Assembly (NCBI RefSeq): GCF_988242995.1
Contig: NZ_OZ547043.1
Reading direction: 5' to 3' (one strand)
Length of the DNA stretch: 64,000 bases
Below, piece by piece: positions 32,703 through 61,110 of the stretch; the first letter of the stretch is position 1; each line of letters starts with the position of its first letter. The translations under genes were made by a program, and so were the position numbers. The notes under the pieces are model-generated. The model saw only the letters and a list, made by a program, of their open reading frames with translations. It searched no databases and was not told the origin of the DNA.

Positions 32703-32890
32703 TGACCATCAGCGATATCATTGAAATTATTGTCGTTTGCGCACTGATATTTTTCCCGCTGGGCTATCTGGCGCGGCACTCTTTGCGACGCATTCGCGAC
32801 ACCTTACGTTTGTTCTTTGCTAAACCTCGTTATGTTAAACCGGCCGGGACGTTACGCCGCACGGAAAAAGCCAGGGCAACCAAAAAATGA
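32699..32890 (+). CDS. bcsF: Small membrane protein BcsF, 63 aa
   Basis: Track [36 protein letters not shown]...; 4-bp overlaps with bcsE and bcsG (translational coupling). Confidence 0.88.
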
Positions 32891-34566
32891 CTCAATTTAC
32901 GCAAAATACCGCCATGCCTTCTTCCCTCTGGCAATACTGGCGCGGTCTTTCCGGCTGGAACTTCTATTTTCTGGTTAAGTTCGGCCTGTTGTGGGCGGGA
33001 TATCTTAACTTCCATCCGCTCCTCAATCTGGTGTTTGCCGCGTTTCTGCTGATGCCCATTCCGCGCTACAGCCTGCATCGCTTACGCCACTGGATTGCCC
33101 TGCCGATCGGCTTTGCTTTGTTCTGGCATGACACCTGGTTGCCTGGCCCGGAAAGCATAATGAGCCAGGGTTCGCAGGTGGCGGGGTTCAGTACCGATTA
33201 TTTAATCGACCTTGTCACACGCTTTATTAACTGGCAGATGATTGGGGCCATTTTTGTTTTATTAGTGGCCTGGTTATTCCTGTCACAATGGATTCGCATT
33301 ACCGTTTTTGTGGTTGCCATTCTGCTATGGCTGAACGTACTTACCCTGGCGGGACCAAGTTTCTCCTTGTGGCCAGCCGGTCAACCGACGACCACTGTAA
33401 CAACGACGGGTGGTAACGCAGCGGCAACCGTTGCGGCGACGGGTGGCGCACCGGTAGTGGGTGATATGCCCGCACAAACTGCACCGCCAACAACGGCGAA
33501 TCTTAACGCCTGGCTGAATAATTTCTATAACGCGGAGGCGAAACGTAAATCGACCTTCCCGTCTTCGCTGCCCGCTGATGCTCAGCCATTTGAACTACTG
33601 GTGATTAATATCTGTTCGCTTTCCTGGTCGGATATTGAAGCCGCCGGGTTGATGTCGCATCCGCTGTGGTCGCATTTCGATATTGAGTTCAAGAACTTTA
33701 ACTCCGCCACCTCCTACAGTGGCCCGGCGGCGATCCGTTTACTGCGCGCCAGCTGCGGGCAGACTTCGCACACTAATCTGTATCAACCGGCAAATAACGA
33801 CTGCTATCTGTTTGATAACCTGTCGAAACTGGGCTTTACCCAGCACCTGATGATGGGACATAACGGCCAGTTCGGCGGTTTTTTGAAAGAAGTTCGCGAA
33901 AATGGCGGCATGCAGAGCGAATTGATGGATCAAACAAATCTGCCGGTTATTTTGCTGGGCTTTGATGGTTCGCCGGTTTATGACGATACCGCCGTGCTTA
34001 ACCGCTGGCTGGACGTTACCGAAAAAGATAAAAACAGCCGTAGTGCCACGTTCTACAACACGCTTCCACTGCATGACGGCAACCATTATCCGGGCGTCAG
34101 CAAAACAGCGGATTACAAAGCGCGAGCGCAGAAATTCTTTGATGAGCTGGACGCCTTCTTTACTGAACTGGAGAAATCGGGTCGTAAAGTGATGGTGGTC
34201 GTGGTGCCGGAACACGGTGGCGCGCTGAAGGGCGACAGAATGCAGGTATCTGGCCTACGTGATATCCCTAGCCCGTCTATCACAGACGTCCCCGTTGGGG
34301 TGAAATTCTTCGGCATGAAGGCACCACATCAGGGGGCACCGATTGTCATCGACCAACCGAGCAGCTTCCTGGCTATCTCCGATCTGGTGGTTCGCGTTCT
34401 TGATGGCAAGATTTTCTCCGAAGACAATGTTGACTGGAAAAAACTCACCAGTGGGTTACCACAAACAGCACCGGTCTCCGAGAACTCAAATGCAGTAGTT
34501 ATTCAATACCAGGATAAACCGTACGTTCGCCTGAACGGCGGCGACTGGGTGCCTTACCCGCAATAA
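32887..34566 (+). CDS. bcsG: Cellulose phosphoethanolamine transferase BcsG, 559 aa
   Basis: Track [43 protein letters not shown]...; membrane N-terminus plus periplasmic alkaline-phosphatase-like domain. Confidence 0.94.
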
Positions 34567-34652
34567 GAACGAAAAAGGCCGCAGAGTTTCACCCCTGCGG
34601 CCTGGTCCGGGCGCAAATTGCCATTACGGCAGCCTGACGCCCGCATGACACG

Positions 34653-34760
34653 TTACTTCCGCTTATTCAGCGAGTTCACGATCAGACTGGCAAGAATGCC
34701 AGCAATGATCGGAGCCGCTAAATCATGCCAGAAGGCCATGCCCAGCTCTGCGAGCGTCAT
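34653..34760 (-). CDS. Ldr-family type I toxin, 35 aa (copy 1, divergent)
   Basis: Last 35 codons of track ORF 34653..34895: MTLAELGMAFWHDLAAPIIAGILASLIVNSLNKRK. ATG (cat on plus strand) at 34758-34760. Confidence 0.8.
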   Translation of the reverse strand: MTLAELGMAFWHDLAAPIIAGILASLIVNSLNKRK

Positions 34761-34808
34761 ATAGCCGCCTGTGTTGTAATGACAACGTTTCGCGGCTATT
34801 CTTGTATT

Positions 34809-34874
34809 GTTTGGATGCAAGAATGGCCCCCGTGGTGTTGTCAGGTGCATACCTGCAACGTGCGGGGGTTTTCT
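34809..34874 (+). ncRNA. Rdl-family antisense RNA (copy 1); coordinates approximate
   Basis: Plus-strand hairpin cccccgtggtgttgtcaggtgcatacctgcaacgtgcggggg followed by ttttctct, antisense to the ldr leader. Its 5' part differs from copy 2. Confidence 0.5.
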
Positions 34875-35135
34875 CTCTCCAGCAACCAATGCCACCAGGG
34901 ATTAAGCCCCCGCAACATTGCGCCTCACCGGAACCCTTCCGGCTTGACGCTGATTCTACGACTGTTTTTCTGTTCCGGAATCCATCACGTCTTCACTCTG
35001 TGCTGCGCATTCCGCAGAATATTATCCGCTTGCAACCGTTGCATTTTTCTTACGAAAAAGGCCGCAGAGTTTCACCCCTGCGGCCTGATCCGGGCGCAAA
35101 TTGCCATTACGGCAGCCTGACGCCCGCATGACACG

Positions 35136-35243
35136 TTACTTCCGCTTGTTCAGCCAGTTCATGATCATACTGGCAAGAATGCCAGCAATGACCGGAGCCG
35201 CTAAATCATGCCAGAAGGCCATGCCCAGTTCTGCGAGCGTCAT
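35136..35243 (-). CDS. ldrD: Ldr-family type I toxin, 35 aa (copy 2, LdrD-like)
   Basis: Last 35 codons of track ORF 35136..35378: MTLAELGMAFWHDLAAPVIAGILASMIMNWLNKRK. ATG at 35241-35243. Confidence 0.8.
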   Translation of the reverse strand: MTLAELGMAFWHDLAAPVIAGILASMIMNWLNKRK

Positions 35244-35291
35244 ATAGCCGCCTCTGTTGTAATGACAACGTTTCGCGGCTATTCTTGAGTG

Positions 35292-35357
35292 GTCTAGAGT
35301 CAAGATTAGCCCCCGTGGTGTTGTCAGGTGCATACCTGCAACGTGCGGGGGTTTTCT
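35292..35357 (+). ncRNA. rdlD: RdlD-like antisense RNA (copy 2); coordinates approximate
   Basis: ggtctagagtcaagattagcccccgtggtgttgtcaggtgcatacctgcaacgtgcgggggttttct: hairpin plus U-run, antisense to the ldr leader. Resembles RdlD as I recall it. Confidence 0.55.
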
Positions 35358-35718
35358 CTCTCCAGCGACCAATGCCACCAGGGATTAAGCCCCCGCAACA
35401 TTGCGCCTCACCGGAACCTTTCCGGCTTGCCGCTGATTCTACGACTGTTTTTTACCGTCAGCACCCGGCAATCTTCCTCATTGCGTGATGCCTTCCAGCT
35501 TAATTTCTTTATTTGCATTAGTTGCAGTTCATATCCGGGCTGACTCCAGACTGGTAGTGAAATGCGCAATTTTGTAGAATTGCGCCTCCTCGCGACCTCC
35601 CCAGTGAATCTGTTGCCTCATTTTTTACATACTGCGTATTCGACTTCTCCACCTGTTGCGCAAGAGAAACTGGGTTTATTCATTTTTGCGAGGCCGACTT
35701 CTTTCTGGACAGGACTTT

Positions 35719-36990
35719 ATGCAGCACAACACACTACCGAAACACGATCAGAAAATGCCGTTTACACGCTACGACTTCGGCTGGGTTTTATTATGCATAG
35801 GCATGGCGATTGGTGCCGGAACCGTGCTGATGCCAGTACAAATTGGCTTGAAGGGAATTTGGGTATTTATTACCGCAGCGATCATTGCTTATCCTGCCAC
35901 CTGGGTAGTGCAGGACATTTATTTAAAAACCCTTTCTGAAAGCGATTCCTGTAATGACTACACCGATATTATCAGTCATTACCTGGGGAAGAACTGGGGA
36001 ATTTTCCTCGGGGTTATCTACTTTTTGATGATTATCCACGGGATTTTTATCTACTCTCTCTCCGTGGTTTTCGACAGCGCCTCGTACCTGAAAACCTTCG
36101 GTTTAACCGATGCCGATCTTTCACAATCTCTACTTTATAAAGTCGCTATTTTCGCCGTACTGGTGGCGATTGCGTCTGGTGGTGAACGATTACTGTTTAA
36201 GATTTCCGGGCCAATGGTGGTGGTCAAAGTAGGGATTATTGTCGTGTTCGGTTTTGCGATGATCCCGCACTGGAATTTCGCCAATATAACCGCCTTCCCG
36301 CAAGCCTCCGTCTTTTTCCGCGATGTCCTGCTTACCATTCCATTTTGCTTCTTTTCTGCAGTATTTATTCAGGTACTAAACCCAATGAATATTGCCTATC
36401 GTAAACGGGAAGCGGATAAAGTACTGGCAACCCGGCTCGCGCTGCGTACCCACCGAATTAGTTATATCACGCTCATCGCGGTGATCCTGTTTTTTGCCTT
36501 TTCGTTTACCTTCTCAATTAGCCACGAAGAAGCCGTTTCTGCCTTTGAACAAAATATCTCGGCACTGGCACTGGCCGCGCAGGTGATCCCTGGGCATATC
36601 ATTCATATCACCTCTACGGTGCTGAATATCTTTGCCGTACTGACCGCATTCTTTGGCATTTATCTCGGTTTCCACGAGGCCATTAAAGGCATTATTCTCA
36701 ATCTGTTAAGCCGAATTATTGATACCAAGAAAATTAATTCACGCGTGCTGACTCTGGCGATCTGCGCTTTTATCGTCATTACGTTGACGATTTGGGTTTC
36801 GTTTCGTGTATCGGTGCTGGTGTTCTTTCAGTTGGGAAGCCCGTTATATGGCATTGTGTCGTGCCTCATTCCGTTTTTCCTGATCTATAAAGTCGCACAA
36901 CTGGAAAAACTTCGCGGATTTAAAGCCTGGCTGATTCTGCTTTACGGCATTTTGCTATGCTTGTCGCCACTGTTGAAGCTGATTGAGTAA
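35719..36990 (+). CDS. yhjV: Putative amino-acid permease (HAAAP family, SdaC/TdcC-like), 423 aa
   Basis: Track ORF 35656..36990; conserved start [34 protein letters not shown] (ATG at 35719). Confidence 0.9.
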
Positions 36991-42704: not shown

Positions 42705-43467
42705 TATTCTGCTCCAATTGTGATGTTTGTTGTTTTAACCCTTTGCAGTGGGTTGTCGCTGCCTGACCTTTTTTGTTTTTTGCCCGGTCGGGTCAACGTT
42801 ATGAGGTGGGGATGCCGTACTAATTAACATCAGTGTAACAGTGCGGATCCTCCATAAAATGCCCCTCGTGACCTACAATCTGTCAACAGAATGTGAAAAC
42901 GTCAATACAGCCAACCGGGATTTACACCAACGGTGAGAATCCACAAACAAAGATTAAAAAAACTTCAAACAGCTATTTGCAGCAGAGAAATTTGTGCTAC
43001 TCCAACATGACCAGAACAATCAGCTTAATATTTAGCAACAATTGGTGATTAAGTTTTATGCATTTAGTGAAAAAAATCTGAGGAAAAGGTGGATATCTGA
43101 GCGATTAATACCATGAACGCTAAAACGCACAGGGGAAAATGCCAGCGCCAGCCATAAGTAACGCAAAAAAAGATTTAAGCAAATATAAAAAAAGACAATG
43201 GTTTCTGTCACAAATCCGTTAATGGATAGTGAGATATGGGGCGCAAATTTGGCAGGGAAATATGTGGTGTGTTGCCGTTTAGATCGGATAAGACGGATAC
43301 GCTGTATCCCACAATGAGTGCGGTGCCGAATTTGGTCGGTGCCAGAGGATTACTCGCCACTTCGTGGCTCGCCCTGCGGGCCGTTGCTGGCGCAACGTTC
43401 TCTCGCTTCGCTCGAGTCGAACCTCCCTGCCCCCGGAGGTTCTCATCCTCTTCAGGCCGCAGAAAGC

Positions 43468-43495
43468 AAAAAAACCAGCCCGTAGGCTGGTTTTT
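43468..43495 (-). terminator. Intrinsic terminator downstream of proK
   Basis: aaaaaaccagcccgtaggctggttttt: perfect ccagcc/ggctgg stem with U-run on the proK (minus) strand. Confidence 0.7.
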
Positions 43496-43501
43496 CTAAA
43501 T

Positions 43502-43578
<77 letters not shown>

Positions 43579-54654: not shown

Positions 54655-54775
54655 ACTTTTATCCACTTTATTGCTGTTTACGGTCCTGATGACAGGACCG
54701 TTTTCCAACCGATTAATCATAAATATGAAAAATAATTGTTGCATCACCCGCCAATGCGTGGCTTAATGCACATCA

Positions 54776-54934
54776 ACGGTTTGACGTACAGACCATTAAA
54801 GCAGTGTAGTAAGGCAAGTCCCTTCAAGAGTTATCGTTGATACCCCTCGTAGTGCACATTCCTTTAACGCTTCAAAATCTGTAAAGCACGCCATATCGCC
54901 GAAAGGCACACTTAATTATTAAAGGTAATACACT
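54776..54934 (+). promoter_or_regulatory. cspA long 5' UTR (cold-box / RNA thermosensor leader)
   Basis: The leader acggtttgacgtacagaccattaaagcagtgtagtaaggcaagtcccttcaagagttatcgttgatacccctcgtagtgcacattcc... precedes the cspA ATG by about 159 nt. A -35/-10 pair (ttgcat ... gcttaat) and an AT-rich UP element lie just upstream. Confidence 0.8.
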
Positions 54935-55147
54935 ATGTCCGGTAAAATGACTGGTATCGTAAAATGGTTCAACGCTGACAAAGGCTTCGGCTTCATCACT
55001 CCTGACGATGGCTCTAAAGACGTGTTCGTACACTTCTCTGCTATCCAGAACGATGGTTACAAATCTCTGGACGAAGGTCAGAAAGTGTCCTTCACCATCG
55101 AAAGCGGCGCTAAAGGCCCGGCAGCTGGTAACGTAACCAGCCTGTAA
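54935..55147 (+). CDS. cspA: Major cold-shock protein CspA, 70 aa
   Basis: Track [73 protein letters not shown]; RNP1 motif KGFGFI. Confidence 0.97.
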
Positions 55148-55173
55148 TCTCTGCTTAAAAGCACAGAATCTAA

Positions 55174-55208
55174 GATCCCTGCCATTTGGCGGGGATTTTT
55201 TTATTTGT
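55174..55208 (+). terminator. cspA intrinsic terminator
   Basis: atccctgccatttggcggggat followed by ttttttta. Confidence 0.7.
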
Positions 55209-55334: not shown

Positions 55335-55487
55335 TTACTCTTTCAAATTGCAGGCTAAAAATGCCGCCAGCTCATAACTCCCCTGTTTAATATGCAATTC
55401 ACACAGTGAATCTCTTATCATCCAGGTGAAAAATAAAAGCGTGAAACAAATCACTATTAAAGAAAGTAATCTATATTTCTGCGGCAT
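55335..55487 (-). CDS. hokA: Hok-family type I toxin HokA, 50 aa
   Basis: Track ORF 55335..55547 (70 aa); the last 50 codons MPQKYRLLSLIVICFTLLFFTWMIRDSLCELHIKQGSYELAAFLACNLKE are the Hok toxin. The in-frame upstream extension probably covers the mok/leader region. Confidence 0.85.
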   Translation of the reverse strand: MPQKYRLLSLIVICFTLLFFTWMIRDSLCELHIKQGSYELAAFLACNLKE

Positions 55488-55766
55488 TCCCAGCCCCCTA
55501 TGTTGATTTCCAACGAGTAAGAGGCTAACCTTATGGTGTTCAGGCATAGGGTAGCCTCACTTTGATTTATAGTCAGGTGGGGCTTTTCTCTGTCTGCCTT
55601 TCGGTGAATACCTGAGACAAACAGTCTCAAGCACCCGCAGCTATTCTAGCTTAATAAGTTCGTTTCTTCTCCTTGATATAATCCTAAAAAAATCTCATAA
55701 AATTAATATATGAGACAATCTTTATTCAGCAGAAGATTATTAAAGGTTGCTCTATTATTTAGCGAT

Positions 55767-60405: not shown

Positions 60406-61110
60406 AAATGCGCCTATAAGGCTCTCTTACCAGCCGCGCCCTAACAGGCGCACACGATCTGACATTTGCATCCAACTTCGTTACTTACGGCCCGTAAACG
60501 GGCTGCCCGGATAGGGAATCGATAACTGCTCTCCCATTTTATCCTCTTCAAGCTGGTGCTTTATGTAATCCTGTATCTTCGCCGTGTTCTTACCCACTGT
60601 ATCGACGTAGTACCCTCTGCACCAGAACTCCCTGTTCCTGTATTTGAATTTCAAATCACCAAACTGCTCGTAAAGCATCAGACTGCTTTTCCCTTTCAGA
60701 TATCCCATAAAGCCGGATACGCTCATTTTGGGCGGGATCTCCACAAGCATATGGATATAATCTGCACAGCATTCAGCTTCCAGAATCCGTACGCTTTTCC
60801 ACTCACACAGCTTTCTCAAAATACTGCCTATTGCTCTACGCTTCTCTCTGTAGAACACCTGTCTTCGGTATTTTGGCGCAAAAACTATGTGATATTTACA
60901 GTTCCATCGGGTGTGCGCTAAGCTCTTTTCGTTCCCCATTGGGACCCCCTTTTGATTTCTTGTTTGACACTTGCAGTTGCCAGACCGCAAAGTGTTTTAA
61001 CAAATCAAAAGGGGTTTTAATAACTGGCTCAAAGCTGAAAGCTTTCCGGAACCCCCAGCCTAGCTGGGGGTTTTCTGTGCACAATAAAGGCCCGGTCACA
61101 TTGGACTGAC
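60405..61110 (-). mobile_element. IS200-like insertion sequence (IS200/IS605 family); boundaries approximate within about 30 bp
   Basis: Single Y1 (HuH) transposase gene with about 75 bp after the stop and about 170 bp before the start. The upstream end carries the characteristic perfect hairpin acccccagcctagctgggggtt. Total about 0.7 kb, as expected for IS200; no terminal inverted repeats, consistent with the family. Confidence 0.8.
60481..60939 (-). CDS. tnpA: IS200-family transposase TnpA (Y1 HuH transposase), 152 aa
   Basis: Track ORF 60481..60990; conserved start MGNEKSLAHTRWNCKYHIVFAPKYRRQVFY; HuH motif (HMLVEI) and catalytic Tyr region (RGYYVDTVG) present. Confidence 0.92.
   Translation of the reverse strand: MGNEKSLAHTRWNCKYHIVFAPKYRRQVFYREKRRAIGSILRKLCEWKSVRILEAECCADYIHMLVEIPPKMSVSGFMGYLKGKSSLMLYEQFGDLKFKYRNREFWCRGYYVDTVGKNTAKIQDYIKHQLEEDKMGEQLSIPYPGSPFTGRK

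Follow-up and report, generated by a model that had tools for sequence, protein, structure and literature searches.

The closest described counterpart of the locus analysed here is LDR-D of Escherichia coli K-12, a type I toxin-antitoxin module (ldrD/rdlD) that was reportedly characterised by Kawano et al. in 2002. Modules of this kind follow a common pattern, in which a stable ldr mRNA is paired with a short-lived antisense RNA, Rdl. The chromosomal position of LDR-D lies between bcsG and yhjV (PMC7232551). LdrD of K-12 is toxic when overexpressed, and the toxicity is relieved by RdlD (PMC4147584, PMC8309996). Both RNAs are detected in E. coli by Northern analysis, and the region in which ldrD and rdlD overlap gives a peak of double-stranded RNA that is cleaved by RNase III (PMC7373196). 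According to the proposed model, Rdl blocks a leader open reading frame, ldrX, which is translationally coupled to ldr (PMC4147584, PMC8167048), although reviews call this mechanism unproven (PMC4147584, PMC8309996). The proposed arrangement resembles hok/mok/sok in its long 5' UTR, its leader ORF and an antisense RNA located upstream of the toxin ribosome-binding site.

Tandem arrangements of such modules are also on record. K-12 carries the LDR-A/B/C array between chaA and kdsA (PMC7232551, PMC4147584), which agrees with the statement in a preliminary description of the present sequence that this array lies elsewhere in the K-12 chromosome. LDR-A/B/C shares with our locus the presence of tandem Ldr/Rdl modules in one intergenic region, but differs in its position and in its Ldr subgroup: Fozo et al. 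set the LdrB group apart from the LdrD group (PMC2887945), and LdrA is 57% identical to LdrD (review PMC8309996). Tandem duplication of ldr-rdl and lineage-specific duplication or loss have been described as well (PMC2887945). The ibs/sib and zorO-orzO / zorP-orzP systems likewise consist of tandem small-toxin/cis-antisense modules whose antisense regions diverge between the copies. Their toxin families are unrelated to Ldr, however, and it is for them that cognate specificity has been shown experimentally.

Two tandem Ldr/Rdl modules between bcsG and yhjV

We analysed a 64,000-nucleotide stretch of contig NZ_OZ547043.1 (RefSeq assembly GCF_988242995.1), hereafter called the window. Its bcsG-yhjV interval, the position of LDR-D, contains two LDR units in head-to-tail orientation, which form an 884-bp array (34569-35452) with a period of 483 bp (Table 1). 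Homology between the copies starts 2-3 bp past the stop of bcsG (34566). The direct repeat (34569-34868 versus 35052-35351, 94% identity over 300 nt) is the sole long direct repeat of the window, and pairwise alignment extends the homology to approximately 401 nt per unit, ending at 34969 and 35452. Across these common 401 nt, 20 positions differ (95.0% identity). The 82-nt spacer between the units (34970-35051) is unrelated to the sequence that follows unit 2. Each repeat unit of roughly 0.5 kb bears both genes, and the same 483-bp period was found in 20 other arrays. The preliminary description had reported two head-to-tail units of about 480 bp in this interval, each with a terminator hairpin, a 35-codon ldr ORF and an Rdl-like hairpin with a U-run on the plus strand; the period, the alignment and the flanking ORFs agree with the first part of this report, and the ORFs, the PF13940 and RF01813 matches and a hairpin scan with the second.

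Table 1 Features of the LDR array and its flanks. Positions refer to the window; promoter elements are putative and were read by eye.
Feature	Position	Strand	Details
bcsG	32887-34566	+	left flank ORF
LDR unit 1, bcsG-proximal	34569..35051		483-bp period: 401 nt common to unit 2 plus 82-nt spacer
Intrinsic terminator of ldr-1 mRNA	34570..34603	-	stem 34603-34576, then T-run; 11 pairs, 8 GC, loop 6, tail TTTTCGTTCT
ldr-1 CDS, allele T1	34653-34760	-	35 codons + stop; MTLAELGMAFWHDLAAPIIAGILASLIVNSLNKRK; Pfam PF13940 Ldr_toxin, 83.4 bits
Putative rdl-1 promoter	34774-34802	+	TTGTAA-17-TATTCT; ends 6 nt before the Rfam-defined Rdl 5' end
rdl-1, 5' tail allele R1	34809-34874	+	66 nt; RF01813, 81.7 bits
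Rdl-1 terminator hairpin and T-run	34852-34866	+	at Rdl 3' end
Putative -10 of ldr-1 promoter	34953-34958	-	TAGAAT; low certainty; conserved in unit 2 and K-12
LDR unit 2, yhjV-proximal	35052..35452		K-12 LDR-D ortholog; 97.5% identical to K-12 LDR-D over 401 nt
Intrinsic terminator of ldr-2 mRNA	35053..35086	-	stem 35086-35059, then T-run; 11 pairs, 8 GC
ldr-2 CDS, allele T2	35136-35243	-	35 codons + stop; MTLAELGMAFWHDLAAPVIAGILASMIMNWLNKRK; Pfam PF13940 Ldr_toxin, 89.1 bits
Putative rdl-2 promoter	35257-35285	+	TTGTAA-17-TATTCT; hexamers identical to unit 1
rdl-2, 5' tail allele R2	35292-35357	+	66 nt; RF01813, 87 bits; 66/66 identical to K-12 RdlD
Rdl-2 terminator hairpin and T-run	35335-35349	+	at Rdl 3' end
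Putative -10 of ldr-2 promoter	35436-35441	-	TAGAAT; aligns with unit 1 and K-12
yhjV	start ~35720	+	right flank ORF

Both peptides match the Ldr_toxin profile PF13940 end to end (1-35 of 35), far above its cut-off of 27 bits, and both rdlD matches are full length (1-66 of 66; gathering score of RF01813, 50). The differences between the units are unevenly placed: six lie inside the toxin ORF, four of which change an amino acid, and nine fall into a 21-nt patch (34805-34825) that covers the Rdl start and the first 17 nt of Rdl. Four terminator-like sites lie where they would be expected, compared to 1.0 such sites in shuffled sequences. No sigma-70-like site reached the threshold when 34450-35750 was scanned for consensus promoters, and the rdl and ldr promoters in Table 1 were therefore assigned by hand. 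Upstream of the putative ldr -10, the common repeat continues for approximately 11 bp only; beyond this point the two units have unrelated sequences, and so do internal and terminal units in their -35 regions. The promoters of ldr-1 and ldr-2 may consequently differ in strength.

Other assignments were considered and rejected. Two long ORFs on the plus strand extend from one unit into the next (131 aa, 34725-35120; 109 aa, 34802-35131) and are not regarded as genes, since their counterparts in unit 2 comprise only 26 and 67 aa. Matches of the hok/sok family RF01794 to the ldr 5' UTRs (30.3 and 23.9 bits) stay below the gathering score of 59, and Ldr_toxin is the sole Pfam match of the peptides, with no match to Hok_Gef. 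A genuine hok/sok-type element occurs elsewhere in the window (55485-55636, 125 bits).

The comparison with K-12 supports the statement of the preliminary description that this strain carries one LDR-D unit at bcsG-yhjV. In RP437, a K-12-derived strain, a single ldrD unit is annotated between both genes and its Rdl is identical to rdl-2; in MG1655 the matched span of 2601 equals 2200+401 and thus corresponds to a single unit. Site and unit architecture are the same as in the window, where two units replace the one of K-12. Unit 2 shares not only the complete Rdl with K-12 LDR-D but also its right flank (3 differences in 82 nt), and its toxin deviates from LdrD in two of the 35 residues (F3L, V28M). 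Unit 1 shares 95.0% of the 401 nt with K-12 LDR-D, the same figure as in the comparison with unit 2, and differs by six nucleotides in the Rdl 5' tail and by a toxin with I18, L26 and S30. Judged by sequence, K-12 LDR-D has its ortholog in unit 2, and unit 1 represents an additional, older paralog.

Taken together, we assign a probability of about 0.9 to the reading that the chromosomal LDR-D array of E. coli is present here as a two-unit allele, made up of two complete tandem modules of the Ldr/Rdl type I toxin-antitoxin family. Our data establish the anatomy, the family membership, the orthology and the distribution in the population. Based on the work on K-12, both RNAs of each module would be expected to be transcribed, the peptides to be toxic and their synthesis to be repressed by Rdl. 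The minus strand of each unit would give rise to an ldr mRNA of ~380 nt with a long 5' UTR, the 35-codon ORF for a small membrane toxin and the intrinsic terminator, while the plus strand would yield a 66-nt Rdl with perfect complementarity to the 5' UTR of ldr, whose pairing with the mRNA would block toxin synthesis. Each rdl is encoded in cis opposite the 5' UTR of its ldr, 49-114 nt upstream of the ATG (34760 and 35243) and clear of the ribosome-binding site and start of the toxin. A direct occlusion of this binding site is therefore impossible, and Rdl would, as in the published model, act indirectly via the leader ORF ldrX in the manner of hok/mok/sok, with the duplex as a substrate of RNase III.

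Copy number and unit alleles across E. coli

To place the two-unit array in the species, we used a flank-only query, in which the 3' end of bcsG was joined straight to the yhjV-side flank, and recovered 5421 matching complete E. coli genomes. Pieces of a match are joined only if they are at most L/2+500 bp apart, so that genomes can be binned by array size (Table 2). Among the matches listed, the spans fit 401+483(n-1) within a few bp in all joined rows except two, in which the alignment was slightly shortened at the end of the query. In sampled genomes, the RefSeq annotation gives 1, 2, 3 or 4 Ldr coding sequences, in agreement with the unit count derived from the span.

Table 2 LDR-D units at bcsG-yhjV in 5421 complete E. 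coli genomes.
Array size	Genomes	Share	Basis
1 unit	2093	38.6%	gap ≤700 bp
2 units	532	9.8%	2625 with gap ≤1100 bp, minus smaller bin
3 units	1821	33.6%	4446 with gap ≤1600 bp, minus smaller bins
4 units	828	15.3%	5274 with gap ≤2100 bp, minus smaller bins
Other (≥5 units, interrupted or deleted)	147	2.7%	remainder of 5421

The census bears out a copy-number polymorphism of 1 to 4 or more units at this locus. The rarity that the preliminary description had implied was not found: ~61% of the complete genomes that carry the locus have at least two units and ~10% exactly two, in a set of RefSeq 'complete' genomes in which K-12 derivatives and O157:H7 (both single-unit) are over-represented, repeats may be collapsed in some older assemblies and any unrelated insertion of about the same length would have been put into the wrong bin. 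Despite these caveats, most of the genomes have a multi-unit array, and arrays of two units are common. The single LDR-D unit of K-12, at ~39% and inflated by laboratory strains and O157:H7, is a minority-to-plurality state and not the norm. It had been stated beforehand that a commonly found two-copy arrangement would make the locus unremarkable, and this largely applies. The array belongs to a known type I toxin-antitoxin family, lies at a known locus, has a common copy number and is annotated routinely by PGAP; public annotation and the literature already contain the module, its tandem occurrence and the exact haplotype.

We then compared the alleles of individual units. In the window the array has the composition R1/T1 - R2/T2, where R denotes the Rdl tail allele and T the toxin allele. 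The same arrangement is present in MEI003, an independent complete genome (99.5% identity over 1.5 kb, flanks 99.6-100%). Of eight clean two-unit arrays that were inspected in other public assemblies for the unit 1 toxin, two match the 884-bp array of the window at 100% identity and four at 99.2%. Other multi-unit arrays in RefSeq, with 2, 3 or 4 'Ldr family' coding sequences (for example MEI003, HM670, SBF45, RM13745, HUSEC2011), share the 483-bp period, the flanks and the element order with the window, and only the combination of unit alleles differs. When 21 multi-copy arrays, that of the window and 20 from complete genomes, were typed by nt 1-28 of Rdl, 14 tail alleles were distinguished. 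R1 is a regular internal member of three- and four-unit arrays, and R2 is the RdlD allele of K-12.

These data bear on the possibility that the second unit arose recently in this strain, by duplication of a single LDR-D unit of the K-12 type, or is an artefact of assembly. Such an origin would fit the single unit of K-12 and the susceptibility of 483-bp tandem repeats to unequal crossing-over and to misassembly, the latter of which has been suspected for a missing ldr unit (PMC7232551). The units of the window differ, however, at 20 of 401 positions, including four amino-acid changes, which exceeds the ~1-2% divergence of the flanks among strains; furthermore, the haplotype recurs in MEI003 and, at 99.2-100% identity, in six other assemblies, and the tail allele R1 is standard in three- and four-unit arrays. 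We regard this explanation as effectively refuted.

The two-unit state instead looks derived, given the 5% divergence of the units and the recurrence of Rdl tail alleles at set positions in three- and four-unit arrays. The order R6-R4-R1-R5 contains several of the arrays as nested subsets (R4-R1-R5, R6-R1-R5, R1-R5 and R6-R5), and by their tail order the sampled arrays look like a deletion series, produced by unequal recombination, of a four-unit array. At least six distinct two-unit haplotypes were found; the two-unit state therefore arose repeatedly. In our reading, the copy number at bcsG-yhjV varies from 1 to 4 or more by homologous recombination between units. Judged by allele composition, the two-unit state of the window accordingly appears to be one among many products of recombination or deletion in an old multi-unit array, and not a K-12-like single unit that was newly duplicated. 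Two wordings of the preliminary description need to be adjusted in this light. It had spoken of a duplicated locus, which is right as to the two copies and misleading as to the direction, since the units differ by 5% and their tail alleles recur in larger arrays. The expansion and contraction by unequal recombination that it proposed is supported, mainly as reassortment and loss among old paralogs and not as fresh duplication. From a practical point of view, the LDR-D locus will be mis-handled in short-read assemblies and in qPCR designs.

Divergent Rdl tails and predicted pairing

In the predicted folds of both Rdl RNAs, the 5' tail stays single-stranded and the terminator forms a stable stem-loop behind it; the minimum free energies are -30.1 kcal/mol for Rdl-1 (z -3.19) and -29.5 for Rdl-2 (z -3.98). 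All six differences between Rdl-1 and Rdl-2 are located within nt 1-17, hence in the single-stranded tail, and the other 49 nt are identical. This distribution is mirrored in the larger sample: nucleotide diversity among 35 units from 14 arrays peaks at 34808-34827 with a value of 0.195, compared to ≤0.093 in any other 20-nt bin of the common 401 nt. Within the 21 typed arrays no tail allele was repeated (0/21), while 15/21 repeat a toxin protein.

It may be speculated that the modules are functionally insulated from each other, the diverged 5' tail causing each antitoxin to prefer its own mRNA as in Sib/Ibs and OrzO/ZorO. In addition to the clustering of differences and the allele distribution, computed energies of tail-only duplexes point in this direction, with -27.9 and -26.3 for the cognate compared to -13.5 and -9.0 for the non-cognate pairs. 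The picture changes if the complete RNAs are considered. Cognate duplexes of Rdl and mRNA span all 66 nt and reach computed values of -144.6 and -142.5 kcal/mol, but the full non-cognate duplexes, owing to the 49 identical nucleotides, remain strong as well (-127.6 and -117.3 kcal/mol). Cross-repression between the units is therefore plausible and thermodynamically easy, even though the tails alone discriminate. The variable patch also overlaps the discriminator of the Rdl promoter and the Rdl start and may simply be weakly constrained, and the sampled arrays are phylogenetically non-independent. Moreover, the idea that Rdl tails never repeat within an array held in 21/21 arrays and failed in 2/10 draft contigs, in which repeated tail alleles could reflect gene conversion, recent duplication or misassembly; it can be upheld as a tendency only. 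We found no report of tail-based cognate specificity for Ldr/Rdl in the accessible literature, and on balance we consider insulation unlikely. If it were true, the array would represent a set of independently regulated toxins and not an extra gene dose. As the arrays are built of distinguishable paralogs, probes against the allele-specific Rdl 5' tails could resolve which of the units are expressed.

The Ser30 toxin allele of unit 1

A highly conserved Trp after the transmembrane helix, followed by basic residues, is the signature of the Fst/Ldr superfamily (Fozo et al., PMC2887945). In T2 this residue (W30) is kept and followed by KRK; compared to the commonest toxin allele, T2 carries the exchange V28M. 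T1 has a Ser at this position (W30S), again followed by KRK. Trp30 is present in all seven other toxin alleles, the frameshift-free ones included, and among the intact alleles seen T1 alone has Ser30. The Trp is a conserved residue and not a formal criterion of membership; by its profile match, unit 1 still belongs to the family. With Ser in place of the signature Trp, the toxicity of the unit 1 peptide is nevertheless not assured.

This raises the question of whether unit 1 is attenuated or decaying, which would leave unit 2 as the only fully functional toxin-antitoxin pair. The exchange W30S removes the conserved interfacial Trp of Fst/Ldr toxins, four of the six nucleotide differences between the ORFs alter an amino acid, and the sequence upstream of the putative TAGAAT of ldr-1 derives from the spacer, is not K-12-like and is unrelated to unit 2. 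Decay does occur in such arrays, as the fourth unit of HUSEC2011 is frameshifted. On the other hand, the ORF of unit 1 is intact with a Pfam score that still amounts to 83 bits, and its ribosome-binding region, Rdl gene, promoter hexamers and both terminators are intact too. The same kind of spacer sequence lies upstream of ldr in the internal units of all three- and four-unit arrays, and T1 is stably inherited. An attenuated or decaying unit 1 is an improbable explanation in our view. A combined scenario, in which the Rdl tails are kept different so that each antitoxin prefers its own ldr mRNA and the W30S peptide is attenuated or functionally shifted, appears doubtful. No mutagenesis of LdrD was found in the one review consulted on this point, which proposes such work for the future (PMC8309996).

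We favour the reading of the array as two complete modules, in which T1 is a stably inherited allele that may be attenuated or simply tolerated. Its exact sequence is found on 419 public contigs, that of T2 on at least 1000. In the ten places inspected, T1 always occupied the bcsG-proximal unit (10/10), and eight of these ten were clean two-unit arrays.

Leader and promoter regions of the two ldr genes

The ldr 5' UTRs of both units were matched by the Rfam model RF01794, 'sok (CssrC)', with the terminal AUG of the model aligning at the ldr start codon. Both scores lie below the gathering score (GA). The matches are compatible with the proposed hok-like organisation of the leader, but are no evidence that the ldr 5' UTRs belong to RF01794. 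Each leader also contains a 25-codon upstream ORF, which is preceded by a GAGG motif about 4 nt 5' of its ATG and is covered by Rdl over its 3' 34 nt. Furthermore, the ldr reading frame itself extends upstream and stays open for 45 more codons, from a GTG at 34895 in unit 1 and at 35378 in unit 2. This frame also includes an ATG (34850 in unit 1), located in the stretch that is complementary to the loop of the Rdl hairpin. The 25-codon ORF or the upstream-extended ldr frame may correspond to the published 'ldrX'.

Since the two repeats cease to be homologous at a point about 11 bp 5' to the putative -10 of ldr (34959-34981 compared with 35442-35464), the -35 regions of the two units are unrelated, being spacer-derived in unit 1 and K-12-like in unit 2. 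The two ldr promoters may differ in strength.

Features of the ldr leaders and other Rfam matches in the window
Feature	Position	Strand	Detail
RF01794 match, sub-threshold, unit 1 ldr 5' UTR	34758-34911	-	30.3 bits, GA 59
RF01794 match, sub-threshold, unit 2 ldr 5' UTR	35241-35394	-	23.9 bits, GA 59
25-codon upstream ORF, unit 1	34841-34918	-	MLRGLNPWWHW[L/S]LERENPRTLQVCT
25-codon upstream ORF, unit 2	35324-35401	-	MLRGLNPWWHW[L/S]LERENPRTLQVCT
tRNA and adjacent RtT element	43333-43578	-	at gathering score
cspA thermoregulator	54775-55202	+	at gathering score
Genuine hok/sok-type element	55485-55636	-	RF01794, 125 bits, at gathering score
STnc490	60949-61072	-	at gathering score

Decay, repetition and possible loss of units in other genomes

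Single LDR units decay in some lineages: in the four-unit array of HUSEC2011 (O104:H4), the fourth, yhjV-proximal Ldr CDS (L021, 3134-3240) is annotated as frameshifted. Two draft assemblies, L023 and L025, carry the same Rdl-tail allele on two units within one array, and in L023 both of these units encode the W30S toxin. These repeated alleles could result from gene conversion, recent duplication or short-read misassembly.

In a few complete genomes (H100, H160 and H180), counted within the 147 'other' genomes, only the far end of the flank on the yhjV side was matched; the annotation there is 'transporter', with dppF in addition in H180. This suggests that the bcsG-LDR interval was removed by deletion or rearrangement.

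LDR-like sequence on plasmids

Plasmids also carry sequence that resembles LDR and has an Ldr family toxin annotated in it. The E. coli collection contained 26 plasmid places; one example (H40, NZ_CP195449.1, 122138-122501) is about 81% identical.
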